Positions 23,045 through 62,521 of a stretch of 64,000 nt of DNA are shown piece by piece (position 1 is the first letter of the stretch; the number at the start of each line of letters is the position of its first letter). The stretch is taken from assembly GCF_044324785.1 (NCBI RefSeq), contig NZ_CP172127.1, one strand, 5' to 3'. Source of the DNA: Escherichia coli (GTDB taxonomy: Bacteria > Pseudomonadota > Gammaproteobacteria > Enterobacterales > Enterobacteriaceae). Both the position numbers and the translations under genes were made by a program. The notes beneath the pieces were generated by a model. The model did no database searches. It had not been told where the DNA came from and saw only the letters and a list, made by a program, of their open reading frames with translations.

Positions 23045-23716
23045 ATGGTGATTGATGCAATGTTAAGCGTTCAGATGACTCCACAAGCAAAAGTTAGCTT
23101 CGAGGAGCAATGTTTTTTTCATGCTTCATGTCTTGTTGTTGCCCCAATAAATGTTGGAGCATTCTCCTACTTTGGCGCTAATTGTATGCTCGGCGGCTTT
23201 ACGATGGGTAGATTTTGTTCAGTTGCTCCAGGAGTAAAAATTGGCCTTGGCGAGCATGAAACTGGGTATTTTTCTACGCATCCTTTTTTCTTTGGCTCAA
23301 AAAATGGTTTTAAAATCCCTGATGGTATAGGAATGCAACGCGACCTCTCTCAACAGAAGCATGGTATACCAAGAATTGGTCATGACGTATGGATAGGTGC
23401 AAATGCGGTTATCAGGCGAGGTATAACTATTGGTACTGGCGCTGTTATTGCTGCTGGCGCTATTGTCACCAAAAATGTCGATCCATATTCAATCGTAGGT
23501 GGCGTTTCTGCAAAACACCTAGGGTACAGATTTGAGGAATCAATCATCAAAGAGTTACTGGATAGCCAATGGTGGGAATATGATTTAAGCTCATTTATTG
23601 GGATTGATACAAGGACACCGACGACTTTTTTAGAGCAGTTTAATGCTGTAAAAGATAAAAAGAAGGCATCTTATAAGAGATTTACAATTCTTCCATCCGG
23701 TGAAATTGTTGAATAG
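23045..23716 (+). CDS. Hexapeptide-repeat xenobiotic acetyltransferase (XAT; Vat/CatB-like)
   Basis: Left-handed beta-helix repeats plus the C-terminal segment [53 protein letters not shown]...[10 protein letters not shown], which closely parallels streptogramin-A / chloramphenicol-B acetyltransferases as I recall them; AT-rich; lies between attL and the tailspike gene. Confidence 0.7.
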
Positions 23717-23735
23717 CGCATCCCTGCGCTATATT

Positions 23736-26105
23736 TTAAATAAACATAAGAATAAACATCAGAAGTTCTTCGTATCTGATACCATACTGATAGCCAGCAG
23801 GTTTAATAATAACCTGCCTTCCTGTGTAATATTCCTCGTCGTACCACTCTCCTGTTTCATTGTTTTTAACACTCCTAATCAATACCTCTGGAGCATAAAT
23901 ATCATCCCATTCATCATAACACCAGAACGCATAGTTATTAGGGTCAAGACCGTATTTTCTGAGAATATTACCTACAGTTTGTGCACCAACGCCGAAATGA
24001 ATCCGAGCGCCATCACTCTTGATCTTTACTGCATCTTTAAATTTAAACCTCCAGATATTTTCCTTTATTTCAAGCGCAGCAAGACGCTCTGATTCTGTTG
24101 TTTTCTCGTCAGCCTCAATACGCAATTTCAGCTCTTCATTCGACGTGTTGATACTGCCAGTACCAGCGTATACCTGTGACCATCGAAATGCTGATGTTCC
24201 GTTTGAGTTAACATTATCAACAGTTGGTTTTATAAGGCCAGAAAAATGAGTTTCAGGTGTATTAATATATGTATATGCACCTGCTGTACTACGAGTCCTT
24301 AACTCAAAGCTGTCTATATCAACACCAGTCCTACGAATTATAAGGAAGTTATTTCCTGCGGAACCAGTATCGGTTTGAGTGCTAACAGACAATCCGTTTC
24401 GTGTATCAATACGTATATTCTTCCCGTTCTCCAGCGAAGCAGAATTATGTAGATACAGCGAGTTGTCAGTGTAGAGATTGTGTTTACCTACATTGCTAAA
24501 TGTATAAGTATTGCTTGTGTTATCACTGTTCCTATGGAATTGCTGAAGAGTGTAGGCAGAAGATGCTCCGTATCCATCACAATGGAAATTTCTGCACAGC
24601 TGCAAATCGAATAACAATACGGTGTCAGCATTAATGCTCACATTATTAAAGCATGTTGCAAAGTTGGCACCATACTGTGAATTGGAATCGCCAATCTGTG
24701 CGCACACATCAAGCAAACCAAAAGTTACATTGGTAAAGTTATTTGCATCACCGGCGTCAAGAACAATCCCTTTCTTAGTCCCTGAATACCCTCTGGCAGT
24801 GCCGATCTCAACTCCCTGGAATGAACACACGCGAGCACGACTAAGCTTAAGACCAACCCATTCCAGACCATGATCGTAACCTTTTGCTGCGCGGTGAATA
24901 AACATACCATTCATGATGAGAAGGAATCTGTTATCAAGCCGTACTGGTTCAAGTTGGGCATTAATACCAACATTTGTGCATATACATTCACCATAAGCAT
25001 AACGATTCGTTTCAAATATACGATCATCAGCGTCGTAAATGCCTCGTAATGCCTTGGCGGCATCAATATTAAGCAATGTAAAATATGTCTTCTGCTTAAT
25101 TTCAAAAAAATTTGCAACATTATGCGTTGTGATATCACTCACACGCATTGATAAAATCCCCTCTTCTGGAGCGGTGCGAATGAATCCATCAAGGAACTGT
25201 TCATTATAACTTTTGGCTATCTGATAACATCCAACAGCATCAATGCGTTCGATTGTGAACTGCCAACTATCACCACAGTTAAAAGACCATCTCCAGCCGT
25301 ATTTCTGAGCGAATTCATCATATTCAACATTTGCAGGTTCAGAACAGAAAGATAAAAATCTAAATGTTGGTTTTGGCCTTAGATGGTTAATCCCGGAACC
25401 TCTTGGGGTATATATGGCATTATCTCCATTCCCACCTTTTGTTTTAACTGTAAGGTGACTTAAACCAAATTCAATATCATATTTAGTTGGTGCGGCGAAA
25501 ACAAAGCCGTCTTTTGGTGATGTGGTATTGTCAAACACAATAACCGTTTCACCCTGCCCATCACCGCACATATTTACTGGTGGTATATTAACGGGGCCAG
25601 TCAAACTATATGTTCCAGTTGGCACATATAGTTTTCCACCCTCTCCAATAGCATTTGCCGCTGCAATAAATGCCGCCGTATCATCGTTAACACCGTCACC
25701 TTTCGCCCCATAATGCTGTGGCGTAATTAACAGCATACGGTCAGAAAAAATCTCTGTCCTAAGTTGATCAGGATCGTATTTTAATACATTTGGAAAATAA
25801 AACTGCTGAGTGCCATATGCATCATATACAGCCATAGAATGGCCTTGCACGGTAACGAATTTGGCAATCTGTCCGTTATATACCGGATAACCAGCAGCGT
25901 TAATAATGATTGGTTGAGAAACAGGAACGTGAGAACCGTCTTCGTTCTCTACATAAACCGGAATCTGGTTTTCAGGATTTACCGGGTCAGTGTCAATTTT
26001 ACCGATATAAATTTTTCCATTAGCATTTGCTTTAAACGAGCGAGCTAAAGTGAATAACTGACTTGGTTGTGAAACAACAACATTGGCATTTATTGAATCT
26101 GTCAT
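23736..26105 (-). CDS. Phage tailspike protein (P22 gp9-like head-binding domain with a divergent receptor-binding body)
   Basis: N-terminal ~115 aa ([18 protein letters not shown]...[12 protein letters not shown]...[13 protein letters not shown]...VLKYDPDQ) match the P22 tailspike head-binding domain; the remainder is unrelated and AT-rich at the 3' end. Confidence 0.85.
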
Positions 26106-26204
26106 TTAATTTACTCCAGATACAAGGAATCGCCGCAGCATGGCTACGGTGAATTTTGGGCATAAAAAACCCAGCCGAAGCTGGGTCGTTGCGTTGGTTA
26201 TCTG

Positions 26205-27083
26205 TCAGTAGTTATGTACTGAAGGAGGTAATTCTTTATTCTTAAGTCTCATCCATGCGGAAATATTCGTTGGTCCGTCTGGCTCATTAATATCAACATC
26301 TCGTGTGTGATTGATTAAAACGTCTCTCGCCATTCCGATAACATACGAGAATTCATGACCGTAGTCGTAGCATCTGCCGGAATAGTTCGATTGAATTTGT
26401 TTCAGCGCCGGATACAGTTCGCGGAATAATGCCTGTGAGCGGTTGGCATAATCCCATAACCATACAAGGCTGTTTGCTTCTTTTGCAGAAAGCTCGTTGG
26501 TTTTCTTCTCTTGTTTGCCAATGAACTCACCTTCAAGCACTACCCTGTGGATGTACTCTACGGCCAGCGGGATTTGTTCAATTGAAAGTTCATCAATGCT
26601 GTCAATACCAAAACGCTGATGAACCATATTGTATGCATCGTCATAGCGAAGTCCTTTCTTTCCTACCAGCATGTTTACTGCATCGCGTAGCGGTGTTCTT
26701 TCCTCAACAGTGGTTTTCTTTCCTTTTACATACTCGCCATGTTTGCGAATTGAAGGCAGAACTTCTGCTGTTACCCACTTGCGGAATTTGTGCGGGACTG
26801 AACCTTTATTGACTGCATCGCGGCAGCGCAGAACCAATGTATACATACCTGATTCGCTCACAATGCTTAGATTCTGCTCACCACCAAGGGTGTAACTTAA
26901 AGTTACTCCCTTTTCATCGTCATCAAGTGCAGTAAGCGCCTTGCGTGAGTTAGTCAAATCTAAAGCATCACAAACATCTTTAGCTACAAACCACGGCTCA
27001 CCGCACTTGTTGATGACGCGGATTTCACTGTCGCCGAATTTGAAGATGGTGAAATCGTTTTGTGCCTTTGCTATACTTTTCAT
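26205..27083 (-). CDS. ant: Antirepressor Ant (Bro-N/KilAC type) of the immI region
   Basis: 292 aa; N-terminus [25 protein letters not shown] is typical of P22-like Ant; sits downstream of arc. Confidence 0.8.
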
Positions 27084-27709: not shown

Positions 27710-28766
27710 GGCTTTGTTGAATAAATCGAACTTTTGCTGAGTTGAAGGATCAGATCACGTATCTTCCCGACAACGCAGACCGTTCCGTGGCAAAGCAAAA
27801 GTTCAAAATCACCAACTGGCCCACCTACAATAAAGCCCTCATCAACCGTGGCTCCATAACTTTCTGGCTGGATGATGAAGCTATTCAGGCCTGGTATGAG
27901 TCAGCAACACCTTCTTCACGAGGCAGACCTCAGCGCTATTCTGACCTTGCCATCACTACTGTGCTGGTCATTAAACGCGTATTCAGGCTGACCCTGCGGG
28001 CTGCGCAGGGCTTTATTGATTCCATTTTTTCTCTGATGAACGTTCCGCTACGCTGCCCGGATTACAGCTGTGTCAGCAGGCGGGCAAAGTCGGTTAATGT
28101 CAGTTTCAAAACGCCCACCCGGGGTGAAATCGCACACCTGGTAATTGATTCCACCGGGCTGAAGGTCTTCGGTGAAGGCGAGTGGAAAGTCAAAAAGCAT
28201 GGCCAGGAACGCCGCCGTATCTGGCGTAAGCTGCATCTCGCCGTTGACAGTAAAACACATGAAATCATCTGCGCTGACCTGTCGCTGAACAACGTTACGG
28301 ACTCAGAGGCCTTCCCCGGGTTAATCCGGCAAACCCACCGGAAAATCAGGTCAGCCGCCGCCGATGGCGCTTACGATACCCGGCTATGTCACGATGAACT
28401 GCGGCGTAAGAAAATCAGCGCGCTTATCCCTCCCCGAAAAGGTGCGGGTTACTGGCCCGGTGAATATGCAGACCGTAACCGTGCAGTGGCTAATCAGCGA
28501 ATGACCGGGAGTAATGCGCGGTGGAAATGGACAACAGATTACAACCGTCGCTCGATAGCGGAAACGGCGATGTACCGGGTAAAACAGCTGTTCGGGGGTT
28601 CACTGACGCTGCGTGACTACGATGGTCAGGTTGCGGAGGCTATGGCCCTGGTACGAGCGCTGAACAAAATGACGAAAGCAGGTATGCCTGAAAGCGTGCG
28701 TATTGCCTGAAAACACAACCCGCTACGGGGGAGACTTACCCGAAATCTGATTTATTCAACAAAGCC
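27710..28766 (+). mobile_element. IS903-like insertion sequence (IS5 family), 1057 bp, flanked by a 9-bp target-site duplication
   Basis: Terminal inverted repeats GGCTTTGTTGAATAAATC (27710-27727) and GATTTATTCAACAAAGCC (28749-28766); direct 9-bp duplication GTGCTGAGC at 27701-27709 and 28767-28775; 1057 bp matches IS903. Confidence 0.9.
27787..28710 (+). CDS. IS903-type DDE transposase (307 aa from GTG 27787)
   Basis: The VAKQKFKITNWPTYNKALINRGSITFWLDDEAIQAWYE N-terminus matches IS903 transposase as I recall it; the ORF is also open from an upstream ATG at 27742. Confidence 0.85.
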   Translation: MAKQKFKITNWPTYNKALINRGSITFWLDDEAIQAWYESATPSSRGRPQRYSDLAITTVLVIKRVFRLTLRAAQGFIDSIFSLMNVPLRCPDYSCVSRRAKSVNVSFKTPTRGEIAHLVIDSTGLKVFGEGEWKVKKHGQERRRIWRKLHLAVDSKTHEIICADLSLNNVTDSEAFPGLIRQTHRKIRSAAADGAYDTRLCHDELRRKKISALIPPRKGAGYWPGEYADRNRAVANQRMTGSNARWKWTTDYNRRSIAETAMYRVKQLFGGSLTLRDYDGQVAEAMALVRALNKMTKAGMPESVRIA

Positions 28767-29071
28767 GTGCTGAGCTGCGCGAGCTTCAAACGGGTAATGA
28801 CCTTCTTTACAACATTCAACAAGGTAAAAAGGGTGATGATTTTTCATCGCTTTACATTACTGGATATTTGCGCGGAGTAACTGACTCATTGATACTAATT
28901 GGTTCTCTATGTCCTCCTGATGGCGTTGACATGTATCAATACACCGATATCGTTGAGAAATCTCTAAACAAAAACCCAGAATCAAGAAATGAGAGTGCAG
29001 TTATACTAACCGCCCTAGCAGTAGGAAAAACATTTCCGTGCAAAAAGAATCAATAACAATAAGGGCTTAAA

Positions 29072-29461
29072 ATGAAATTGATTATAGCAATGGCTTTCCT
29101 TGTCTTCTCGTTTTCTGTCTCAGCAGAGTGCTGGGTCGTTGGAGATATGCACGGAATAAGCTATTCAGAACGAAATAATTTTCAACCGGAAGAAGATGGT
29201 TTTAGTGGAACATTCATCATTAAGACAAACGGTGAAGATGCCAGTATCACATATTCTGGGACGGATGCGGGCGGCATGGCTTACAAAGCATTGTCTAAAA
29301 ACTCCATCCTAGGAATTGGCGCGAATGGAGAAACTCAACGCGTTATAGACTCATGGGTAATACATCCTACTGGAACAGTTTTAATGTCAAAAACCATTTC
29401 CGGTTATGGAAATATGGATTCAACCAAAGCTTTTGTTGGAAAAGTAAAAAGAAAATGTTAA
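29072..29461 (+). CDS. Hypothetical secreted/periplasmic protein (129 aa)
   Basis: Signal peptide MKLIIAMAFLVFSFSVSAEC; second gene of the mnt-downstream operon; no recognisable domain. Confidence 0.6.
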   Translation: MKLIIAMAFLVFSFSVSAECWVVGDMHGISYSERNNFQPEEDGFSGTFIIKTNGEDASITYSGTDAGGMAYKALSKNSILGIGANGETQRVIDSWVIHPTGTVLMSKTISGYGNMDSTKAFVGKVKRKC

Positions 29462-29482
29462 CGATAGGATTATGGCCCTACA

Positions 29483-29677
29483 TCAACAGCTTCCGCGTCC
29501 CTGAGTAATTCTGTTGCGGATTTGCTTCTTGCGGTGGTTTAAGCTGGAGAGCTTGGCTTCTGCTTCTGATATTTGCGCATCAAGATCTTTAAGCTCAAGA
29601 TCTGAAAGTCGCTGGTCAAGCAGGGTTTGGTTCAACTCAATATTGTTCAGACGTTCTTCTATGGTCATAACTTTCAT
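29483..29677 (-). CDS. Small coiled-coil protein (about 64 aa from ATG 29677)
   Basis: Heptad-rich MKVMTIEERLNNIELNQTLLDQRLSDLELKDLDAQISEAEAKLSSLNHRKKQIRNRI; start codon choice is uncertain. Confidence 0.4.
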   Translation of the reverse strand: MKVMTIEERLNNIELNQTLLDQRLSDLELKDLDAQISEAEAKLSSLNHRKKQIRNRITQGRGSC

Positions 29678-29699
29678 CCTATAACTATTTGGAATCAAA

Positions 29700-29882
29700 A
29701 TGAAAAATATATTAATTGGTTTCGTTTTTGGTGCAGCCTGCGCTGCCAGCATTAGCGTTATCGCCGCCCAGATTGTTGGTGGTAACTCATATCTAATGGG
29801 CTATGACGTCATGATAGATGGAGAGGTTGTTTGCTCAGACCCTTATGTATGGACGTCGACAAAAGAAATAGAATGTGACTAA
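29700..29882 (+). CDS. Small signal-peptide/membrane protein (60 aa)
   Basis: [28 protein letters not shown] hydrophobic N-terminus; AT-rich cargo region. Confidence 0.35.
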
Positions 29883-29977
29883 TACCAGCCTGATGGCTGG
29901 TTAATTTTTGCATTTACCTGGGCCATATTGACTACTTATAAAATGAGATCAATATTTAATCGCCCAATAACGGGTGT

Positions 29978-30172
29978 ATGTTGAGGTATATCATGGCGAA
30001 AAAACCAGGTGAAAATACAGGGAAAAACGGCGGAATATACCAGGAAGTTGGTCCACGCGGTGGTAAGAAGGACAATTTTGCCACCGTCAGGGACAACGAA
30101 AGACTTCCGCCAACAACAAAGCCAGGTCATGGCTGGGTATTGGATAAGCGAACTCCAGACAGCAAAAAGTAA
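29978..30172 (+). CDS. Small basic Gly/Lys-rich protein (64 aa; start may be ATG 29993)
   Basis: ORF only; MAKKPGENTGKNGGIYQEVGPRGGKKDN. Confidence 0.3.
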   Translation: MLRYIMAKKPGENTGKNGGIYQEVGPRGGKKDNFATVRDNERLPPTTKPGHGWVLDKRTPDSKK

Positions 30173-42368: not shown

Positions 42369-43781
42369 TTACCAACCGGAGGATGAGGGAACGTATATTT
42401 CTGTTTCTTCGCGGACCAATGCCGGGCAATGCATACACATCATCAGCGCATCAGCCAGGTTAGGAGATGGAATACCGAGCTTCTGCTTCATTTCGACCTT
42501 AGTCATTAGCTCCAGCTTCCCGTTGTTATTGAATTTGCGCTGAATCTGCGTCAGTTCTGCAAACAGCTTCTCCAGCATCTTCTCGCCTATCGCTTCTTTG
42601 TCGAAACTCAGCATGTCGTCTGGGTCTGCATACTCACCGTGAACAACCGCCCGATATGTCAGATACAGCCTGTCAGCCAGCACGTAATAGAATTGCGCTC
42701 GCTTATTGCGGAATACATCGCCAATAGTGCGAACGTTGTCGCCCTGTACGACTTCATCAGCCCAAGCTCCGGACTGATACGGCGCATCTTCATCGAATGG
42801 CGATTCGCTACCCTTGAACATTGTGGCGGTGATTTTCTTGCCGGAGAACGCTTCCGTTGTCTGTCTGCGCAGCCCGGCACCAACACCATCACCATCCCAC
42901 AGGTAATGGTCAGCGCCGTCTTCAATCGCCAGCGAAGTAGCCCAGTCAGCACCCTCGTTGATGTCCATCAGCAGACCTTCGGCAATGCGCTTAACTACCG
43001 AACCGTGACGCGATGCATAACCTTTAGCATCTGGCCCTGTATCTGATGGGTCATGCGCAGAGACAACCGCGCCCTTCGCTTTCCATCCGAGTTTCTTGTG
43101 CGCATCGGTTGCAGCTTCAAGCCATTCACGTTTGATGATTGCCATATCACTTGCGCTTACCGGCTCACCCAGCCAGATGTGACGATACAGTGTCGGATTT
43201 CTGCGTTTGCACTCTTCCATCTCCAGACGGAGAACTTCAGGAAAGTGCGGGTTGTCGGTGTAGTTCACCGTCAGCAGACAAATATCATCAGGAGGATTTA
43301 CGACGAATCGCTGATAGGTATCGTCGAGGATGTTCTTCGGGTTAAAGCTCACCCATATTTCAGAGAACGGCTTACGGATGGTTGGAATCAGGATATCCCA
43401 TGATTCCTTCGTTACCGCTTCCGCTTCTTCCACCCAGCAGATATCAATGCCTTCGAGCGATTTAATCTTCGTCGGGTTGTTTTTGATGCCGTAGAACATG
43501 AATTCAGCATTCGTTCCGAGATGACGAATCATTGAACGCTGAATTTCAAACTCAGCCGAATACCCTTCACGCTCGATGGTATCTTCAAGCAACCGGATTA
43601 CCGAATCGCTGATACTGTTTTGCAGTTCACGAGCGCAGAGAATACGCACAGGCTGCCGACGCGCCGCTTCAACAAGCAGCCTCGCAATTGCCCATGACTT
43701 ACCGCTACCTCGACCGCCTTTGGCAACTTTGTAGCGATGCGCCTCAATGAACGGTTCAAAGATAGGATTAATCGAGGTCAT
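42369..43781 (-). CDS. Terminase large subunit, 470 aa
   Basis: Walker A motif KGGRGSGKS near the N-terminus; 4-bp overlap with the terminase small-subunit gene. Confidence 0.9.
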   Translation of the reverse strand: MTSINPIFEPFIEAHRYKVAKGGRGSGKSWAIARLLVEAARRQPVRILCARELQNSISDSVIRLLEDTIEREGYSAEFEIQRSMIRHLGTNAEFMFYGIKNNPTKIKSLEGIDICWVEEAEAVTKESWDILIPTIRKPFSEIWVSFNPKNILDDTYQRFVVNPPDDICLLTVNYTDNPHFPEVLRLEMEECKRRNPTLYRHIWLGEPVSASDMAIIKREWLEAATDAHKKLGWKAKGAVVSAHDPSDTGPDAKGYASRHGSVVKRIAEGLLMDINEGADWATSLAIEDGADHYLWDGDGVGAGLRRQTTEAFSGKKITATMFKGSESPFDEDAPYQSGAWADEVVQGDNVRTIGDVFRNKRAQFYYVLADRLYLTYRAVVHGEYADPDDMLSFDKEAIGEKMLEKLFAELTQIQRKFNNNGKLELMTKVEMKQKLGIPSPNLADALMMCMHCPALVREETEIYVPSSSGW

Positions 43782-44218
43782 TTTCCGAATAGAGTGCTCA
43801 TCGGTGATGTTTCAATCTGAATTGCGCCGCCGTCTTTGCCTGTTAGCTCGTGATCAACCTTGTCGCGCCATTTATCCTTCTGTCGGTTCTTAAGCCAGAA
43901 GATGGCGGCGGTTGTATCAGGCGGGTAATACTTCTCAAGCGGAGTTTCGACAATTCTGTTTTCAATAACACGAATATCGATGTCTGGAGCCACAAACCCC
44001 ATAGCGCGTTGATAAAGACGGTCACTAACTTCTGCATCAGCGACGGCCTTACCCTTTTTTATGGACTCCGAAAACTTAGGATAATCAAGCTTCCACTTGT
44101 TAATAGTTGACTCACTGACTTCAAAGAAATCAGCAAGTTCTGCATCGGTGTAGCCCAGCAAGCACAGTTTGCGTGCCTGTTCGGCATACGCCTCTTGATA
44201 CTTTGTTGGGCGCGCCAT
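43778..44218 (-). CDS. Terminase small subunit (Sf6-type), 146 aa
   Basis: N-terminal HTH and the C-terminal tail ELTGKDGGAIQIETSPMSTLFGK, as in the Sf6 small terminase as I recall it. Confidence 0.8.
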   Translation of the reverse strand: MARPTKYQEAYAEQARKLCLLGYTDAELADFFEVSESTINKWKLDYPKFSESIKKGKAVADAEVSDRLYQRAMGFVAPDIDIRVIENRIVETPLEKYYPPDTTAAIFWLKNRQKDKWRDKVDHELTGKDGGAIQIETSPMSTLFGK

Positions 44219-44220
44219 GT

Positions 44221-44463
44221 TTATGCTCCGGTAGTGAACAGGTCTAACGCTTCCTTCGATTTACGCACCGCTTCGATTGTGCGGGTCGTGATATCTGAAT
44301 TAGCGCCGCCTGACTGGAAGTGAATTTTGAATAGCTCAAGCTTCAGCTCGTCAGTGCCGATGAACTGAAATGCTTCCTCTGCGGCTGCGTTCTGGTTCAT
44401 TACCAGTTTGTAAATCTCTAACTGGAATTTCTGTTCTTCAGTCATGGGAATAATCTCTGCCAT
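44221..44463 (-). CDS. Hypothetical phage protein, 80 aa
   Basis: ORF directly upstream of the terminase small-subunit gene. Confidence 0.45.
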   Translation of the reverse strand: MAEIIPMTEEQKFQLEIYKLVMNQNAAAEEAFQFIGTDELKLELFKIHFQSGGANSDITTRTIEAVRKSKEALDLFTTGA

Positions 44464-44566: not shown

Positions 44567-44938
44567 CTACTGTTCGCTTAGCTTCTGCTTCAGCAAGTAA
44601 CCTTCAAGCATCCAGATTTTGTTTACAGCATTCTGCCGGGCAATCTTCCGACCAATTTCTGCATCAAAATTTTCCGGACTTGCACAGGCACTCTCTCCGG
44701 TGACGGTGAAGCCGTTGCGCAGCACCAGGACGCAGAACGTCAGCAGAGAAAGTGATTCGTGCGGCTGGTAGTTTACCTCTCCGCCAGTATGTTTCGCTTT
44801 TATGGCTTTGCCAAAGGCACCATCCTCTGCTGTGAAATATGCCTCCTGAGCAATAATTCCTTCGATATGGTCTGGCGTAACGCGCGGTGCCGTTTTGCCT
44901 TTCTCAACGATTTCTTTTTCGATTTGCTGGTCGTTCAT
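44567..44938 (-). CDS. Hypothetical phage protein, 123 aa
   Basis: ORF with a plausible start; unknown function. Confidence 0.45.
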   Translation of the reverse strand: MNDQQIEKEIVEKGKTAPRVTPDHIEGIIAQEAYFTAEDGAFGKAIKAKHTGGEVNYQPHESLSLLTFCVLVLRNGFTVTGESACASPENFDAEIGRKIARQNAVNKIWMLEGYLLKQKLSEQ

Positions 44939-45117
44939 AATTATGACCCTGTAGAGTGGTTGCTTGATTAGGATGTATTTCCATCAGTCCGCCACCACAA
45001 AGAATCTTTTTTGCCATAAGGCAGGAGGTTCATCTTTCAGTGGCTGCCAGTGTTATTTTTCCCACTTACTGGCTTGGGTTGTTTCGCTGTACTGCCGTTA
45101 ATTGGTGAGTCCGGGGA

Positions 45118-45603
45118 TTATTTCAGTTCGTTACCAGGCATTTCTTTTAGCTCTTTCAAATGACAACGATTGAGACTAAACCACTCCCCGTGCGACCTAT
45201 AGTTGTAATATTTTTGGTGCAATTTGGTTTCAAGCTCTCTATCGGCCGGAATCTTTGCAATTAGACTTAGCTTCCCACCACTCATGCGAGATATCTCTGA
45301 AATTCGTTTATTAACCCTGCGACTAAACCCTATTTTTGTTAGCCCACTATCTTCAGCATGCAGAACGTACACATATGATTTTTGCGAAGCACTGGGTGCG
45401 ACTTTGTTGTAATTAATCATGTCAAACATGAAGCCTTGCTTTAGCAAAGTTTCAAAAAAGATAGAATTAACACACCCATTCCTTCTCAGCTCTGAACTTA
45501 GCTTGTCAATTTCCTCTATGATGTCGCCAGACCCCTTTCCACTTATAAGAAAATCTTGGTACATGCGACCAATTCTTGAGGTAATTTCAACAAAGTTATT
45601 CAT
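45118..45603 (-). CDS. T5orf172 (GIY-YIG-like) domain protein, 161 aa
   Basis: C-terminal half YVYVLHAEDSGLTKIGFS...RISEISRMSGGKLSLIAKIP...ELETKLHQKYYNYRSHGEWFSL fits the T5orf172 pattern; strongly AT-rich relative to its neighbours. Confidence 0.6.
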   Translation of the reverse strand: MNNFVEITSRIGRMYQDFLISGKGSGDIIEEIDKLSSELRRNGCVNSIFFETLLKQGFMFDMINYNKVAPSASQKSYVYVLHAEDSGLTKIGFSRRVNKRISEISRMSGGKLSLIAKIPADRELETKLHQKYYNYRSHGEWFSLNRCHLKELKEMPGNELK

Positions 45604-45943
45604 AGCGTTTACCTTTTAGAAAGTGAGCCTGTCTCACAGAAAAGCCGCCCGAGAGAGGTCGCCACCTATAACGGCATTTCTCAGGCTCGCTTACTGAAAG
45701 GCTCTCGTTAATATGCGCGTGAGATGCGCTGTGAGATTCAGATATAAAAAAGCCCCGCGAATGCGAGGCTAAATCCTGGTGTTTGTGATGACTGGCTCTT
45801 ATCTCAACGCAGCCCCTTACCGCGCGCCAGATGCTCAATATCAAGCATCAGCAATGAGATGTTTAATCTGGATTCACTCCAGAAGTGATCACCACCCTGT
45901 CTACAGAGCCAGATGTGAAGGATGATGAGTAAAATTATCGCTA

Positions 45944-46381
45944 TCATCGAAGGCATTGCATCCTGATGTACTCCTGCAGGTAGTTAACCTGCGCGGTTAT
46001 CTTGTCGATTCCACTTCGGAGACGGTAATAATTGAGTTCAGCATCTGCTGTAAGTCCTGGGCTTTCTCCATCGCCCATGCCGCCGGCTCCGGTCGTTGAC
46101 TTTGCACAGGTGGCGGCGACTTGCAGGCGCTTACGCCCAGCAGAAACATCAGCACGGAGACTTTCGATAGTCGCGTTAGCATCAGCAAGCTCCTTTGTGT
46201 ATCTGGCGTCAAGTTCTGCTACATCACGTTGACGCTTCTGCATGTCAGCGATGATGGATGCGGCCTTATCGCGCTGCTCTTTGTAGGCGATGGCGTTATC
46301 ACGGTAATGATTAACAGCCCATGACAGGCAGACGATGATGCAGATAACCAGAGCGGAGATAATCGCGGTTAACCGACTCAT
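45944..46381 (-). CDS. i-spanin Rz (from ATG 46381)
   Basis: [39 protein letters not shown]... is near-identical to the lambda Rz N-terminus as I recall it. Confidence 0.85.
45997..46212 (-). CDS. o-spanin Rz1 (lipoprotein embedded in the +1 frame of Rz)
   Basis: Lipobox LLGVSAC followed by a Pro-rich region; lies entirely within Rz in another frame; the true start is probably an internal Met. Confidence 0.7.
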
Positions 46382-46469
46382 GACATCAACACCCCAACGG
46401 CCAGAAACCACGGCCACGCATCGTTGCCATTAAATGCGAGCAACGCTGCCATGAAAAAGCAAATCATGC

Positions 46470-47392: not shown

Positions 47393-47468
47393 TGGTGCTG
47401 GTTAACGGACTTGAACCGCTAGCCATTCGCTTACAAGGCGACCGCTCTACCATTGGAGCTAAACCAGC
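47393..47468 (-). tRNA. Prophage-encoded tRNA (76 nt; anticodon read as UGU, Thr)
   Basis: Hand fold of GCTGGTT...AACCAGCACCA: 7-bp acceptor stem, D-arm GCTC/GAGC, T-arm AGCGG-TTCAAGT-CCGTT, CCA encoded; the anticodon stem has one mismatch. Confidence 0.55.
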
Positions 47469-47473
47469 ATGTT

Positions 47474-47548
47474 TGGCGGGACAGCGTGGACTCGAACCAC
47501 GATAAGAAGGTTAACAGCCTTCCGTAATGACCTTTATACGACTGACCC
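47474..47548 (-). tRNA. Prophage-encoded tRNA-like gene (75 nt; anticodon read as GUU, Asn), possibly degenerate
   Basis: T-arm CGTGG-TTCGAGT-CCACG and anticodon arm GAAGG-CTGTTAA-CCTTC are clean; the acceptor and D stems each have one mismatch; CCA encoded. Confidence 0.45.
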
Positions 47549-47611: not shown

Positions 47612-48130
47612 CTAAATGGATAATTGCATGTCAAGGCTTTTAACAGCAACATGCTTAACTTTCTCAACACGTTTACGCATTTTGAAAGCATTTTGCATTG
47701 GCTGGTACAAAACAAATAACGATGCTTTCAGGATGTCGTCAATTTCGTTTCTACAGGTTGCCAGTGAAGGTTTTCTCCATCCCTCGCCACCACGTCCACA
47801 CATCTTGCGTGGCTTTGCAGTCGCGTGATAGTAGGATGCAATTGCTCGCTTAGATGAACCATGAGCGTAGTAGCTGAGGAGGATGCCAAAGGCTTTCTTG
47901 TCAATGCACATGACGGAATCGACGACCTGAGAAATCAACATTCCATCATCATCATTGCACATTGGCCTTGTCATAACTCTTCCCGGCTCTACGCTCTCCA
48001 TGAACTTCGCTATTACGCTGCTCATGCGCTTTTCCAGACGACCTGAATAAACCCATGCGCCCCACAGTTCAAGCCAGCCATTCAGCCACTCATGCTGTTC
48101 TTTGGTGAGGTTTAGTTCTCTTATGCCCAC
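47612..48130 (-). CDS. Late-gene antiterminator Q (933W/phage-21 type)
   Basis: Shares the WGAW...RP-C-DDD...LL-YY pattern with 933W Q as I recall it; positioned between the nin region and the tRNA/lysis genes. Confidence 0.7.
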
Positions 48131-55984: not shown

Positions 55985-56671
55985 ATGGATAAATACGAAC
56001 AAAGACGACTAAGGCTGATAGAGATAAGAGACCGATTCTGTAATGGAAAGGCCTCAGAGTTGGCTCGTCGAATAGAAAGGGAACCATCATACGTTTCCAG
56101 AATGCTGTATCCGGAAGGAAAAAGCGGAAAAAAACGCATTGCTGACGATATGATGGAACTAATTGAAAAATCTTTTAATCTCCCACGCGGATGGATGGAC
56201 ATGCTTGCAGATGGTAAAGCTGGAGCTACAGACCATCTTGAGTTTGCGGGTAACGTTCGTGCGGGTTTTGTTCCGGTAATTGGTGAAGCCGTTTTGGGAG
56301 TTGATGGCTCAGTGGATATGATTGAATTCAGATCCGGTTGGTTAAGCATCTACAGCGGCGATAAAGATGCTTACGGTCTGAAGGTTAAGGGTGACAGCAT
56401 GTGGCCAAGGATTCAGTCAGGAGAATATGTTGTTATTGAACCAAATACGCCAGTACATCCAGGTGATGAAGTCTTTGTAAGGACCAAAGACGGTCACAAC
56501 ATGATAAAGATCATGAACAAAACAAGAGACGGTGATTATCAGTTTAGTAGCATAAACAGTGATCACCGCCCAATCACTCTTCCTGTTGAAGAAGTTGATA
56601 AAATGCATTTTGTTTCAGCTATTGTGAAACACACCAGGTACGTAGACCAGGACGATCTGCCAAAAGTTTGA
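55985..56671 (+). CDS. CI-type prophage repressor (HTH + LexA-like S24 peptidase domain)
   Basis: N-terminal HTH and C-terminal autocleavage domain with GDSMWP (Ser nucleophile); 228 aa. Confidence 0.85.
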   Translation: MDKYEQRRLRLIEIRDRFCNGKASELARRIEREPSYVSRMLYPEGKSGKKRIADDMMELIEKSFNLPRGWMDMLADGKAGATDHLEFAGNVRAGFVPVIGEAVLGVDGSVDMIEFRSGWLSIYSGDKDAYGLKVKGDSMWPRIQSGEYVVIEPNTPVHPGDEVFVRTKDGHNMIKIMNKTRDGDYQFSSINSDHRPITLPVEEVDKMHFVSAIVKHTRYVDQDDLPKV

Positions 56672-56685
56672 GGATAAAGCAGCAA

Positions 56686-56982
56686 GTGTTTATACCCGGC
56701 ATAGTAGTCGCTGTTGTAATCATCTGCTTCATATGGGCAAAGTTATCTCCTGTAAGCTCTAAGCATACAGCTGAACTCATGAAGAAGAAGCATCTTATAC
56801 ATGAGGCAGAATCGATAATTAAAAAGTTCAAAGGCATGTCATACGACGACATGTCATCAGAGCAGATTGCTATGTATAAATGCGCCATTGAGCGTCTTGA
56901 CTACTTAAACGGACTCAAACCCAAACACACCCCAGTAGAATCAAAATTGCCGCAATGGCCAAGCAATCCAAATAGCTTCTGA
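56686..56982 (+). CDS. Small single-pass membrane protein downstream of cI (rex-locus position), about 98 aa
   Basis: GTG at 56686 with GAGG upstream (or TTG 56668); TM helix VFIPGIVVAVVIICFIWA then a soluble domain; followed by an intrinsic terminator. Confidence 0.5.
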   Translation: MFIPGIVVAVVIICFIWAKLSPVSSKHTAELMKKKHLIHEAESIIKKFKGMSYDDMSSEQIAMYKCAIERLDYLNGLKPKHTPVESKLPQWPSNPNSF

Positions 56983-56993
56983 CATCTCCTTTC

Positions 56994-57016
56994 AGCCCGC
57001 AAAGCGGGCTTTTTTA
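56994..57016 (+). terminator. Intrinsic terminator ending the cI operon
   Basis: AGCCCGC-AAA-GCGGGCT hairpin followed by TTTTTT. Confidence 0.8.
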
Positions 57017-57035
57017 TATCAATCCAAAAAATTAA

Positions 57036-57116
57036 TTACCTGAAAATTCAAGCAGGTAAACTCTTACATCAATTTTATTTACCTGCAGGTATAGACAACT
57101 GTTTTACCTGTAGGTA
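57036..57116. promoter_or_regulatory. Left operator region (OL) with PL
   Basis: Sites TTACCTG-N10-CAGGTAA (57036-57059), TTACCTGCAGGTA (57079-57091) and TTACCTGTAGGTA (57104-57116), the same consensus as OR. Confidence 0.7.
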
Positions 57117-57160
57117 TATTTTAGGCCATCAGCAGGACGCACTGACCACCATGAAGGTGA

Positions 57161-57191
57161 TGCTCTTAAAAATTAAGCCCTGAAGAAGGGC
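57161..57191 (+). promoter_or_regulatory. nutL (boxA + boxB)
   Basis: TGCTCTTAAAAATTAAGCCCTGAAGAAGGGC; boxB hairpin GCCCTGAAGAAGGGC as in lambda nutL. Confidence 0.85.
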
Positions 57192-57348
57192 AGCATTCAA
57201 AGCAGAAGGCTTTGGTGTGTGTGATACGAAACGAAGCATTGGCCGGAAGTGCGAATCCGGATTAGCTGCCAATGTGCCATTGCGTGGTGTTTTCGTTCAG
57301 GACTACGACTCCCACACACAACCAAAGCTAACTGACAGGAGAATCCAG

Positions 57349-58246
<898 letters not shown>

Positions 58247-58369
58247 TTAAAAGACAGGCATACTAATAAACACTGCACTGTGTATTCATTCCAACGAGTG
58301 AATACACGGAGCAATGTCGCTCGTAACTAAACAGGAGCCGACTTGTTCTGATTATTGGAAATCTTCTTT

Positions 58370-58396
58370 GCCCTCCAATGTGAGGGCAGTTTTTTT
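58370..58396 (+). terminator. Intrinsic terminator (tL-like) within the early-left operon
   Basis: GCCCTC-CAATGT-GAGGGC hairpin followed by AGTTTTTTT. Confidence 0.7.
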
Positions 58397-58409
58397 GACG
58401 GAGTAAACG

Positions 58410-58658
58410 ATGATAAAAACTGATTACCCTGCAGAGCTTAAACAAAAAGTAATAACAGCAATTAAATGCTCTTTTATCTCATGTCGTACAGATGAAGAAC
58501 GATATGTCGTTGAGTGTACAATTGTCGAGTTTCTCACAGCGATGGAATTTACCGCTGCAGAATCAATAGATGTATTAAAGCAATCAGACGGAAATGATAT
58601 TGAAACGGATGATGTTATTGACCGACTAATAAAATCATTCGAAGAAGAAATAGAGTAG
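58410..58658 (+). CDS. Hypothetical acidic early protein, 82 aa
   Basis: RBS GGAG upstream of ATG; unknown function. Confidence 0.45.
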   Translation: MIKTDYPAELKQKVITAIKCSFISCRTDEERYVVECTIVEFLTAMEFTAAESIDVLKQSDGNDIETDDVIDRLIKSFEEEIE

Positions 58659-58741
58659 CCGCCTGAGCGCGGCTTTACCGCATACCAATAACGCTTCACT
58701 TGAGGCGTTTTCGTTATGCAATCAAACAGAAGGAGCATCCT

Positions 58742-58912
58742 ATGCAACAGTTCGCTATTGCAGGGGCGGCATCGGTTCGCCCTTTCAACCCGATTTTATC
58801 GGTGCAGCATTCACGAAAAAATATTTTAACCGGAGCAGACTTTAAACAACCAAGAATGAAAAGTTTGCTCGAAAAGCTTTGGGATATTTTGAAACAACAA
58901 GGCCGTCCATGA
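58742..58912 (+). CDS. CIII-like protein (56 aa from ATG 58742)
   Basis: RBS AGGAG; MQQFAIAGA... resembles the lambda CIII N-terminus (MQYAIAGW...). Confidence 0.55.
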   Translation: MQQFAIAGAASVRPFNPILSVQHSRKNILTGADFKQPRMKSLLEKLWDILKQQGRP

Positions 58913-61046: not shown

Positions 61047-61394
61047 GTGGAAGAAGAAATCTTCACTCGTGAAGAGGCAGCGTCGTATCTGAAGGTAGAC
61101 AAAGGCACTATCACGCAGTGGATACGAAGTGGACGACTTCAGGCCGCAAAGATAAATCCAGATAAACCTAAAAGCCCATATCGCATTTGCAAGTCAGACT
61201 GCATTGCGGCGCTTAAGTCTGTGAGACACAATAGCGCGGTGAATGCGGTTGATGTGCAGGAGGTTAAAGCATGTCAATCAAACTACGCGGTGGCACGTGG
61301 CACTGTGATTTCGTCGCGCCAGATGGATCAAGAGTTAGACGCTCTCTTGAAACATCGGACAAAAGGCAAGCGCAAGAACTTCACGATCGTCTAA
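61047..61394 (+). CDS. xis: Excisionase (Xis-like HTH)
   Basis: 115 aa; N-terminal REEAASYLKVDKGTITQWIRSGRL HTH; immediately upstream of and overlapping int. Confidence 0.65.
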   Translation: MEEEIFTREEAASYLKVDKGTITQWIRSGRLQAAKINPDKPKSPYRICKSDCIAALKSVRHNSAVNAVDVQEVKACQSNYAVARGTVISSRQMDQELDALLKHRTKGKRKNFTIV

Positions 61395-62431
61395 AAGCAG
61401 AAGCGTGGAGAGTAAAAAATCTCGGGGAATCACCGAAAAAGCTATTCAAGGAAGCCTGCATACGGTGGCTGCGTGAGAAATCGGATAAGAAGTCCATTGA
61501 TGATGACAAGAGCATTATATCGTTCTGGATGTTGCACTTCAGAGAAACCATTCTCTCAGACATAACAACAGAAAAAATAATGGAGGCGGTAGACGGGATG
61601 GAAAACCGCCGCCATCGCCTGAACTGGGAAATGAGCCGGGACAGGTGTTTGCGGCTTGGCAAGCCAGTGCCGGAGTATAAACCAAAGCTGGCAAGCAAAG
61701 GAACGAAGACGCGGCATCTGGCAATACTTCGCGCTATTCTCAATATGGCTGTTGAATGGGGATGGCTTGACAGGGCGCCCAAAATATCAACACCACGCGT
61801 TAAGAATGGACGAATCAGATGGCTTACAGAGGAGGAATCGAAGCGCCTGTTTGCAGAAATTGCTCCTCATTTCTTCCCTGTGGTCATGTTTGCAATCACG
61901 ACAGGCCTTCGCCGTTCCAACGTTACAGACCTTGAGTGGTCACAGGTCGATCTGGATAAGAAAATGGCATGGATGCACCCTGATGAAACAAAAGCTGGCA
62001 ATGCGATCGGAGTTCCTCTTAACGAAACCGCATGCCAGATATTAAGAAAACAGCAGGGTCTCCATAAGAGATGGGTGTTTGTCCACACCAAACCTGCCTA
62101 CCGAAGCGACGGAACAAAAACAGCAGCGGTAAGGAAGATGAGAACCGACAGCAACAAGGCATGGAAGGGAGCGTTAAAGCGGGCAGGCATTAGCAACTTC
62201 CGCTTCCATGACCTGAGGCATACCTGGGCAAGCTGGCTGGTTCAGTCCGGTGTCTCTCTTCTTGCACTTAAAGAGATGGGAGGATGGGAAACTCTCGAAA
62301 TGGTTCAAAGATACGCCCACCTTTCAGCCGGGCATCTCACCGAGCACGCGAGCAAAATCGATGCGATTATAAGTCGCAATGGCACAAATACGGCACAAGA
62401 GGAGAACGTGGTTTACTTAAATGCGAGGTAA
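61271..62431 (+). CDS. int: Tyrosine integrase (P22-like)
   Basis: 386 aa; catalytic-domain residues (...RFHDLRHTWASWLVQSGVSLLALKEMGGWETLEMVQRYAHL) and N-terminus like P22 Int; its stop lies inside the att repeat next to thrW. Confidence 0.9.
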   Translation: MSIKLRGGTWHCDFVAPDGSRVRRSLETSDKRQAQELHDRLKAEAWRVKNLGESPKKLFKEACIRWLREKSDKKSIDDDKSIISFWMLHFRETILSDITTEKIMEAVDGMENRRHRLNWEMSRDRCLRLGKPVPEYKPKLASKGTKTRHLAILRAILNMAVEWGWLDRAPKISTPRVKNGRIRWLTEEESKRLFAEIAPHFFPVVMFAITTGLRRSNVTDLEWSQVDLDKKMAWMHPDETKAGNAIGVPLNETACQILRKQQGLHKRWVFVHTKPAYRSDGTKTAAVRKMRTDSNKAWKGALKRAGISNFRFHDLRHTWASWLVQSGVSLLALKEMGGWETLEMVQRYAHLSAGHLTEHASKIDAIISRNGTNTAQEENVVYLNAR

Positions 62432-62491
62432 CTTATTGATTTAAATGGTGCCGATAATAGGAGTCGAACCTACGACCTTCGCATTACGAAT
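62428..62491. repeat. Prophage attachment-site repeat (attR): 64 bp overlapping the thrW 3' end
   Basis: Identical to 22652-22715. Confidence 0.85.
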
Positions 62492-62521
62492 GCGCTGCTC
62501 TACCAACTGAGCTATATCGGC
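62446..62521 (-). tRNA. thrW: tRNA-Thr (anticodon CGU)
   Basis: Reverse complement reads GCCGATATAGCTCAGTTGGTAGAGCAGCGCATTCGTAATGCGAAGGTCGTAGGTTCGACTCCTATTATCGGCACCA; canonical cloverleaf; sits beside proA. Confidence 0.9.

Follow-up and report, generated by a model that had tools for sequence, protein, structure and literature searches.

A gene in a P22-like prophage of Escherichia coli encodes a 161-amino-acid (aa) protein that ends in a T5orf172 domain. It lies on the minus strand of a 64,000-nucleotide stretch of contig NZ_CP172127.1, which we refer to in full as the window. This T5orf172 gene occupies a fixed site of lambdoid phages at which alternative cargos are found between the same flanks: Rha, KilA-N together with HkbL, an open reading frame (ORF) of family phrog_872, T5orf172, or nothing. 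Judging from sequence and structural models, the explanation that we tentatively favor is that the gene is a cargo cassette of the late operon and encodes a small, probably active T5orf172/MUG113 DNA endonuclease of the GIY-YIG superfamily.

The gene is real and already catalogued as an accessory gene, and its presence is no surprise to a specialist. The ORF list contains the 161-aa frame together with the motifs that the initial annotation had read in it (Y77-V-Y79-V-L81, K90-I-G-F-S94, R100 and E140-W-F142). The protein matches PHROG 4284 over its full length (7.7e-75) and is 98.8% identical over all 161 residues to gp68 of Salmonella phage epsilon34 and to g341c gp64; a protein of phage NM-3 is also 98.8% identical. 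These three and their E. coli counterparts are labeled "GIY-YIG nuclease family protein" in RefSeq; gene 68 goes undiscussed in the paper on the epsilon34 genome (PMC2629481). The gene is carried by 57 of 5,426 complete E. coli genomes, always on the chromosome and in one copy each, and the copies listed are each annotated as an intact coding sequence (CDS). At a threshold of at least 95% identity, the full-length ORF is present in those 57 genomes and three phages. What is added here to the initial annotation is the homology of the N-terminal domain to HkbL of phage HK620, the invariant residue set of the C-terminal domain, and a conserved leader that sequesters the Shine-Dalgarno (SD) sequence.

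The composition of the gene is foreign, as the initial annotation had claimed. Its GC content is 38.9% (39.5% at third codon positions), as against 46-53% in the neighboring genes (Rz, 53.2%; a 50-aa ORF, 46.4%; a Gp49-family gene, 49.2%; DUF2560, 46.5%; the small terminase gene terS, 47.2%; the large terminase gene terL, 50.9%). A low-GC tract at 45108-45646 overlies the ORF, and windows of 486 bp that are equally AT-rich make up 1.4% of those across the 64 kb and 1.0% of those inside the prophage. Further long tracts with a GC content of 40% or less lie in the interior or at the edge of the prophage, at 23200-26300, 28700-30050 and 56400-58900.

An exchangeable cargo slot and its leader

The boundaries of the slot were defined by blastn comparison with epsilon34, Sf6, HK620, Huey, 611R6, BTP1, HK106 and E. 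coli W. The downstream junction, J_left (Table 1), is 94-96% identical across all eight of these loci despite differing or absent cargo. The upstream flank (45599-45789), which comprises the ATG, leader and terminator, is common to epsilon34, E. coli W, HK620 (80%) and HK106 (90%). The junctions of the cassette are exact, falling at 45107/45108 and 45598/45599. Between them lies the T5orf172 gene in the window, epsilon34 and E. coli W; gp64 in HK106, an allele 32% identical in protein without DNA similarity; the KilA-N gene hkbK plus hkbL in HK620; rha in BTP1; and the phrog_872 ORF in Huey. The slot is nearly empty in Sf6 (106 bp) and 611R6 (50 bp), as compared with 674 bp (45108-45781) in the window. 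The synteny comparison bears out the earlier suggestion of a hotspot for accessory genes. Two outcomes that had been named as damaging to that suggestion, a missing domain match and a gene of uniform GC in the conserved backbone, were not what we found.

The same arrangement recurs across E. coli, where this leader reaches the ATG of Rha-family genes or of a KilA-N gene followed by an 85-aa gene. J_left is present in 1,118 of the 5,426 genomes, the leader at a coverage of at least 80% in 731, and the terminator part in 1,913. In 55 of the 57 carriers the T5orf172 gene lies within the same frame of junctions, and two E. coli genomes match only 74% of the query that spans both junctions. On these grounds the gene is a minority allele at a mosaic slot that is widely populated, exchangeable via conserved flanks and with no ends of its own, and we infer that homologous recombination in the common flanks swaps one cargo for another. 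Comparison of HK106 with the window reveals very old alleles inside a recently homogenized scaffold, with flanks 90-96% identical in DNA and proteins 32% identical. A transposon-like or self-contained insertion was considered and rejected, as there are no repeats or ends belonging to the insert and the flanks are common to other cargos.

Presence or absence at one locus among relatives, close to an essential gene, is the pattern looked for in homing genes, and it is seen here. Relatives at 32-62% identity are found between the lysis cassette and terminase in five independent, unrelated phage backgrounds (P0009, P0019, P0025, HK106 and E. coli W), which agrees with the published tendency of T5orf172 genes to adjoin terminase genes and boundaries of genetic exchange (PMC10448857). 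Other relatives (P0016, P0018 and P0021) are sited in accessory islands of the tail region. Three metagenome proteins, P0014, P0005 and P0013, have T5orf172 or N-domain segments that are joined to Rz (PF03245) or DUF2560 sequences, or are truncated; they may be deletion variants or assembly artifacts.

Some database labels near the slot were set aside. The 611R6 CDS annotated as an HNH homing endonuclease (1079-1519) is about 89% identical in DNA to terS of the window, which matches phrog_309, and we rejected it as evidence of homing because it is a mis-annotated small terminase gene. Two Huey genes labeled anti-CRISPR (382-762 and 997-1497) match phrog_322 and phrog_872, both PHROGs of unknown function; the annotation looks unsupported, and we made no use of it. 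Literature searches on rha/IHF and on P22-like slot cargos yielded nothing useful.

An intrinsic terminator separates the lysis module from the cargo, and the equivalent element is annotated as rho-independent in epsilon34 and HK106. It is followed by a 141-nt leader shared by T5orf172, Rha and KilA-N cargos, in which the SD sequence AAAGG (45612-45616) lies 8 nt upstream of the ATG. A hairpin spanning approximately 45611-45702 pairs this AAAGG with CCUUU at 45697-45701, and the fold of the single sequence has a z of -3.08. We aligned 8 and 11 leaders that precede T5orf172, Rha or KilA-N genes. In every one of the 11 leaders RNAalifold retained the full set of 31 hairpin pairs, with one compensatory pair (UA/AU), a thin covariation signal given how similar the sequences are, and substitutions are located in unpaired stretches. 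Rfam has no family for the leader.

A consensus scan of 45604-45750 on the minus strand gave no sigma-70-like promoter between the terminator and the ATG, although a scan this crude may let weak promoters escape. Leader haplotypes differ in the segment directly 3′ of the terminator, making a conserved promoter in that segment less likely. On the downstream side, a minus-strand terminator scan of 44939-45117 found none, leaving the upstream terminator as the only one. Lambda-type Q-modified polymerase reads through terminators, and KilA and Rha are toxic, as a nuclease would be. Read-through by Q, an upstream terminator without a promoter behind it, and a hairpin over the SD sequence together suggest that expression of the cargo is tightly gated, with synthesis confined to the late phase of lytic growth and translation kept low. 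At the level of translation, the structured leader may hold toxic late cargos in check. The term moron, which had been applied to the gene, fits its deviant composition and its absence from some relatives; it does not fit a gene for which these scans found neither a promoter of its own nor a downstream terminator, whose terminator is upstream, and whose leader is common to other cargos.

Two domains and the case for a nuclease

A hidden Markov model search confirmed the proposed T5orf172/GIY-YIG-like domain. Pfam-A matches are to MUG113 (PF13455, i-E 7.8e-13, residues 90-154) and T5orf172 (PF10544, i-E 1.1e-9, residues 77-154). In an AlphaFold2 model of the protein (pLDDT 90.8), the C-domain resembles solved GIY-YIG nucleases and has their beta-beta-alpha-beta-alpha core. 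Its structural neighbors in AFDB50 are all T5orf172/GIY-YIG proteins, many of which UniProt names "T5 Orf172 DNA-binding domain-containing protein". Among PDB sequences, profile searches returned only non-significant matches, to BH0048 and T4 EndoII (E 0.13-0.5).

Eight residues (Y79, K90, G92, R100, E125, H129, E140 and W141) do not vary among 148 relatives of 24-99% identity, which were gathered by similarity to the C-domain, making the invariance partly circular. A weak profile alignment to I-TevI (hhalign, E 1.2e-3; query sequence verified against 1LN0 and 1MK0) covers the first half of the domain and pairs Y79 with Y6, K90 with Y17, G92 with G19 and R100 with R27. The register of these four residues is identical against BH0048 and T4 EndoII. 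E125 falls in the second helix, within the half that the I-TevI alignment missed, and E140 is a second invariant Glu. The ICP1 T5orf172 nuclease Odn cuts DNA and requires a conserved Glu, and it is the sole precedent for metal-dependent cleavage in the T5orf172 branch (PMC8263062). On balance, we consider it moderately probable that the 161-aa protein is an active nuclease.

The N-terminal half had been called unrelated, but it has relatives. The model places helices at residues 3-21, 25-41 and 47-68. Residues 2-60 match phrog_875 (1.2e-6), a family that HkbL of HK620 matches at 3.2e-54, along with phrog_4284, and BLASTP aligns the N-domain with HkbL at 33% identity over 55 aa (E 4e-12). The gene for HkbL (85 aa) directly follows the KilA-N gene hkbK with a 4-nt overlap (HK620 locus 2095-2846). 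Given this homology, and the position of HkbL after KilA-N in the same slot, one predicted helical module is paired in trans with KilA-N and fused in cis to T5orf172. When the N-domain was used as a profile query, the matches were limited to stand-alone HkbL-like proteins and truncated copies of the gene, with no new fusion partner. Pfam detected no further domain in the 161-aa protein, including KilA-N, Bro-N, Rha or helix-turn-helix (HTH), and PHROG likewise gave no KilA-N, Bro-N or Rha match; what the protein has in common with those regulators is the slot, the leader and the HkbL-like partner domain. In the literature, 87% of T5orf172 homing endonuclease genes have Zn-finger DNA-binding domains (CapR-like, DUF723 or DUF4397; PMC10448857). 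The N-domain is acidic and lacks Cys pairs, the only cysteines in the protein being C44 and C147, and it is unlikely to be of this type.

We propose that the gene would be transcribed solely when Q-modified RNA polymerase passes the upstream terminator during lytic growth, and that the leader hairpin over the ribosome-binding site would damp translation, which would suit a toxic product. The C-domain would then cut DNA with a metal ion bound by the conserved Glu, as in ICP1 Odn, and the acidic N-domain would act as a module for partner binding, oligomerization or targeting and not as a classical DNA-binding domain. The targets would be non-self DNA encountered in lytic growth, such as that of a lambdoid phage, prophage or satellite that resides in the same cell and has no copy of the cassette. 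Such cutting would favor inheritance of the cassette and the module boundary, amounting to homing-endonuclease-like behavior. This homing-like or competitor-directed role is the more doubtful part of the proposal, and we put it forward as a possibility.

Several observations weigh against this proposal. PHROG lists family 4284 as "unknown function", and nuclease activity in this family is a prediction from sequence and models. The Tyr of the second motif (Y17 in I-TevI) is replaced by an invariant Lys (K90-I-G), a departure from canonical GIY-YIG enzymes, although Lys is the consensus among the relatives collected and is typical of T5orf172. We only tentatively equate E125 with the metal-binding E75 of I-TevI, from its position in helix 2 and the order of secondary structure elements. 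The protein has no recognizable DNA-binding domain of the sort found in T5orf172 homing endonucleases, and the acidic N-domain has only generic helical bundles as structural matches. The gene is single-copy and in E. coli is nearly always in the same slot. Cargos that are not nucleases use the same slot and leader, so the polymorphism can be explained without a nuclease, and two of the tail-region islands place relatives beside Arc, Bro-N, Rha, KilA-N/P63C and Imm_superinfect genes. A strict homing-endonuclease label is not justified for a gene with one copy per genome, no defining DNA-binding domain in its product and a polymorphism that common flanks explain.

We weighed the late nuclease against other explanations. 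One that we regard as rather unlikely makes the protein a functional analogue of Rha and KilA-N, a regulator or something like an antirepressor that has no catalytic activity and uses its T5orf172 domain only to bind DNA. T5orf172 was reportedly first described alongside Bro-N and KilA-N, with a DNA-binding role proposed. The exact slot and leader are held in common with Rha and KilA-N genes, the N-domain is homologous to the product of the KilA-N partner gene in HK620, P0018 and P0021 lie in the islands just mentioned, and the UniProt naming of many relatives points the same way. All of the catalytic-type GIY-YIG core residues, however, are invariant in distant relatives, and these would be needless for DNA binding alone; Pfam also found none of the KilA-N, Bro-N, Rha or HTH domains in the protein. 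CapR of PLE is a repressor derived among homing endonuclease relatives (PMC8096241), but its repression resides in the Zn-finger domain and not in T5orf172 (PMC8096241, PMC10448857). An Slx1-like nuclease, structure-specific or weakly specific, could instead serve the phage's own lytic cycle by trimming concatemers or degrading host DNA late. At 161 aa the protein is too small to include a domain for recognizing a long site, and late expression would fit, as would the position just ahead of the packaging genes that it has in several phage lineages. Even so, the gene occurs in only about 5% of the E. coli genomes with J_left (57 of 1,118), the nin regions of related phages encode RusA or NinG junction nucleases, and the free swapping of the cargo for Rha, KilA-N or nothing means that it is dispensable for packaging, all of which makes this role improbable.

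The initial annotation had also raised a defense function, and as a classical moron the gene might be expressed in the lysogen as a defense or superinfection-exclusion nuclease against incoming phage DNA. The foreign GC content is in keeping with this, as is relative P0021, which adjoins an Imm_superinfect gene. The sole match in PADLOC-DB 2.0 is PDC-S57 (E 3.8e-4, 18.1 bits), a weak hit to a candidate system and not to a validated one, and NCBIfam returned no match for the protein. The expression context disfavors defense further: no promoter-like site was seen from the upstream terminator to the ATG, a hairpin takes up the ribosome-binding site, and the gene is co-oriented within a Q-dependent late operon. 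We therefore hold this function to be very improbable. That the gene is a decaying remnant or a chance ORF, as the truncated or fused metagenome copies (P0005, P0013 and P0014) and the two E. coli genomes with partial query coverage might hint, is effectively refuted by conservation: the near-identical full-length ORFs of the 57 genomes and three phages, full-length relatives down to 32% identity that keep the invariant motifs, and a fold predicted with high confidence.

A broader idea, which we regard as a long shot, treats the slot as a gated socket for late effectors. The terminator and SD-sequestering leader would form the gate, and KilA-N, Rha and the T5orf172 nuclease would be interchangeable heads, with the HkbL-like module as a common adaptor, working with KilA-N in trans and joined to T5orf172 in cis. 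Such effectors would serve in conflict between phages or between phage and satellite, as ICP1 Odn does against PLE, and proteins at 32% identity inside flanks that are 90-96% identical in DNA would reflect an arms race.

Prophage context

The prophage that hosts the gene lies at tRNA-Thr(CGT) (62446-62521), with its integrase at 61271-62431. On the minus strand, Q (47612-48130) is followed by tRNA-Asn and tRNA-Thr, holin and endolysin, Rz/Rz1 and the 50-aa ORF, and then by the terminator, the 141-nt leader, the T5orf172 gene, the Gp49-family gene, DUF2560, terS, terL and portal (Table 1). The placement of the gene between lysis and packaging functions, as originally described, is correct; Rz and terminase are not its direct neighbors, since the 50-aa ORF, terminator and leader intervene on one side and the Gp49-family and DUF2560 genes on the other. 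The distance downstream to terS is about 900 bp.

Table 1. Coordinates in the window of the T5orf172 gene, its domains, the slot elements and neighboring genes.
Feature	Position	Strand	Basis and remarks
T5orf172 gene CDS, 161 aa	45118..45603	-	ORF list; ATG start; HkbL-like N-domain plus T5orf172/MUG113 C-domain
N-terminal domain, residues 1-70	45394..45603	-	three-helix bundle; acidic, pI 5.2; homologous to HK620 HkbL
C-terminal nuclease-like domain, residues 77-154	45142..45375	-	beta-beta-alpha-beta-alpha-beta-alpha; basic, pI 9.7
Downstream junction J_left, 136 bp	44972..45107	.	begins 10 bp past the stop codon
Conserved 5′ leader, 141 nt	45604..45744	-	blastn; common to T5orf172, Rha and KilA-N cargos
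Intrinsic terminator	45745..45770	-	terminator scan; 8-bp stem with 6 GC pairs, then T-run; between lysis module and cargo
50-aa hydrophobic ORF	45804..45956	-	phrog_11822, 3.9e-38; last gene of the lysis-side segment
Rz i-spanin	45944..46417	-	phrog_13 Rz-like spanin, 8.2e-71; Rz1 embedded at 45997-46212; upstream lysis neighbor
Gp49-family gene, Sf6 gp66-like	44567..44938	-	phrog_322, 8.7e-63
DUF2560 gene	44221-44463	-	phrog_571, 2.3e-41; downstream packaging neighbor
Small terminase (terS)	43778-44218	-	phrog_309 terminase small subunit, 9.7e-68

The blastn comparison also revealed a second, independent presence/absence slot at 44568-44971, which in the window is occupied by the Gp49-family gene. 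This segment is present in Sf6, Huey and 611R6 and absent from epsilon34, HK620, HK106, E. coli W and BTP1. In BTP1 the pid gene, on the opposite strand, lies between rha and DUF2560, about where the Gp49 segment would sit. The 50-aa ORF, which is hydrophobic at the N-terminus and overlaps the end of Rz, has counterparts in Sf6 gp65 and epsilon34 gp67; it may be lysis-related. The tRNA genes, tRNA-Thr(TGT) and tRNA-Asn(GTT), at 47393-47548 (minus strand) between Q and holin, are similarly placed in Sf6 and BTP1.

Comparison with known systems and significance

The closest counterparts, epsilon34 gp68 and g341c gp64, occupy the same slot as the window gene, in the order Rz, small ORF, terminator, gene and DUF2560. 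Epsilon34 differs from the window in lacking the Gp49-family segment (44568-44971) and in its lysis and packaging modules. HK106, an HK97-like siphovirus, encodes in gp64 a 162-aa protein with the same two-domain architecture and in the same slot after Rz and the terminator; unlike in the window, the next gene is an HNH endonuclease annotated as similar to HK97 gp74. The cargos of HK620 (hkbK-hkbL) and of P22 and BTP1 (rha) have the slot and downstream junction in common with the window gene, and hkbK and many E. coli Rha genes also have its leader up to the ATG. These cargos contact DNA through a KilA-N or Phage_pRha module, whereas the window protein has a GIY-YIG fold, and HkbL is a separate polypeptide made after KilA-N, whereas its counterpart in the window is fused ahead of T5orf172.

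ICP1 Odn (Gp88) and the putative homing endonucleases of ICP1 resemble the 161-aa protein in that their T5orf172 domain is C-terminal and keeps the Arg and Glu, and their genes lie by essential or terminase genes and exchange boundaries (PMC8263062, PMC10448857). Their N-terminal targeting domains are different, consisting of RepA_N or of CapR-like, DUF723 or DUF4397 Zn-finger domains, and they have many paralogues, in contrast to the acidic HkbL-like domain and single copy seen here. The hosts also differ, ICP1 being a lytic vibriophage and the window gene belonging to a temperate lambdoid phage. Canonical GIY-YIG proteins (I-TevI, Slx1, the UvrC N-domain, T4 EndoII and PD-T4-3) have Tyr in the second motif where the window protein has Lys (KIG), and we assigned no canonical counterpart to His129 or to E140-W-F.

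Should the protein prove to be an active late nuclease, the picture of T5orf172 nucleases at module boundaries would extend from lytic vibriophages to temperate lambdoid phages, and the lambdoid phages of E. coli and Salmonella are genetically easy systems. The link between the N-domain and HkbL offers a way into the Rha, KilA-N and T5orf172 cargos of the slot, which have long lacked an explanation, and the conserved structured leader appears to gate the translation of all of them. The HkbL link and the common leader are the most useful new leads from this analysis, and they may outweigh the gene itself.

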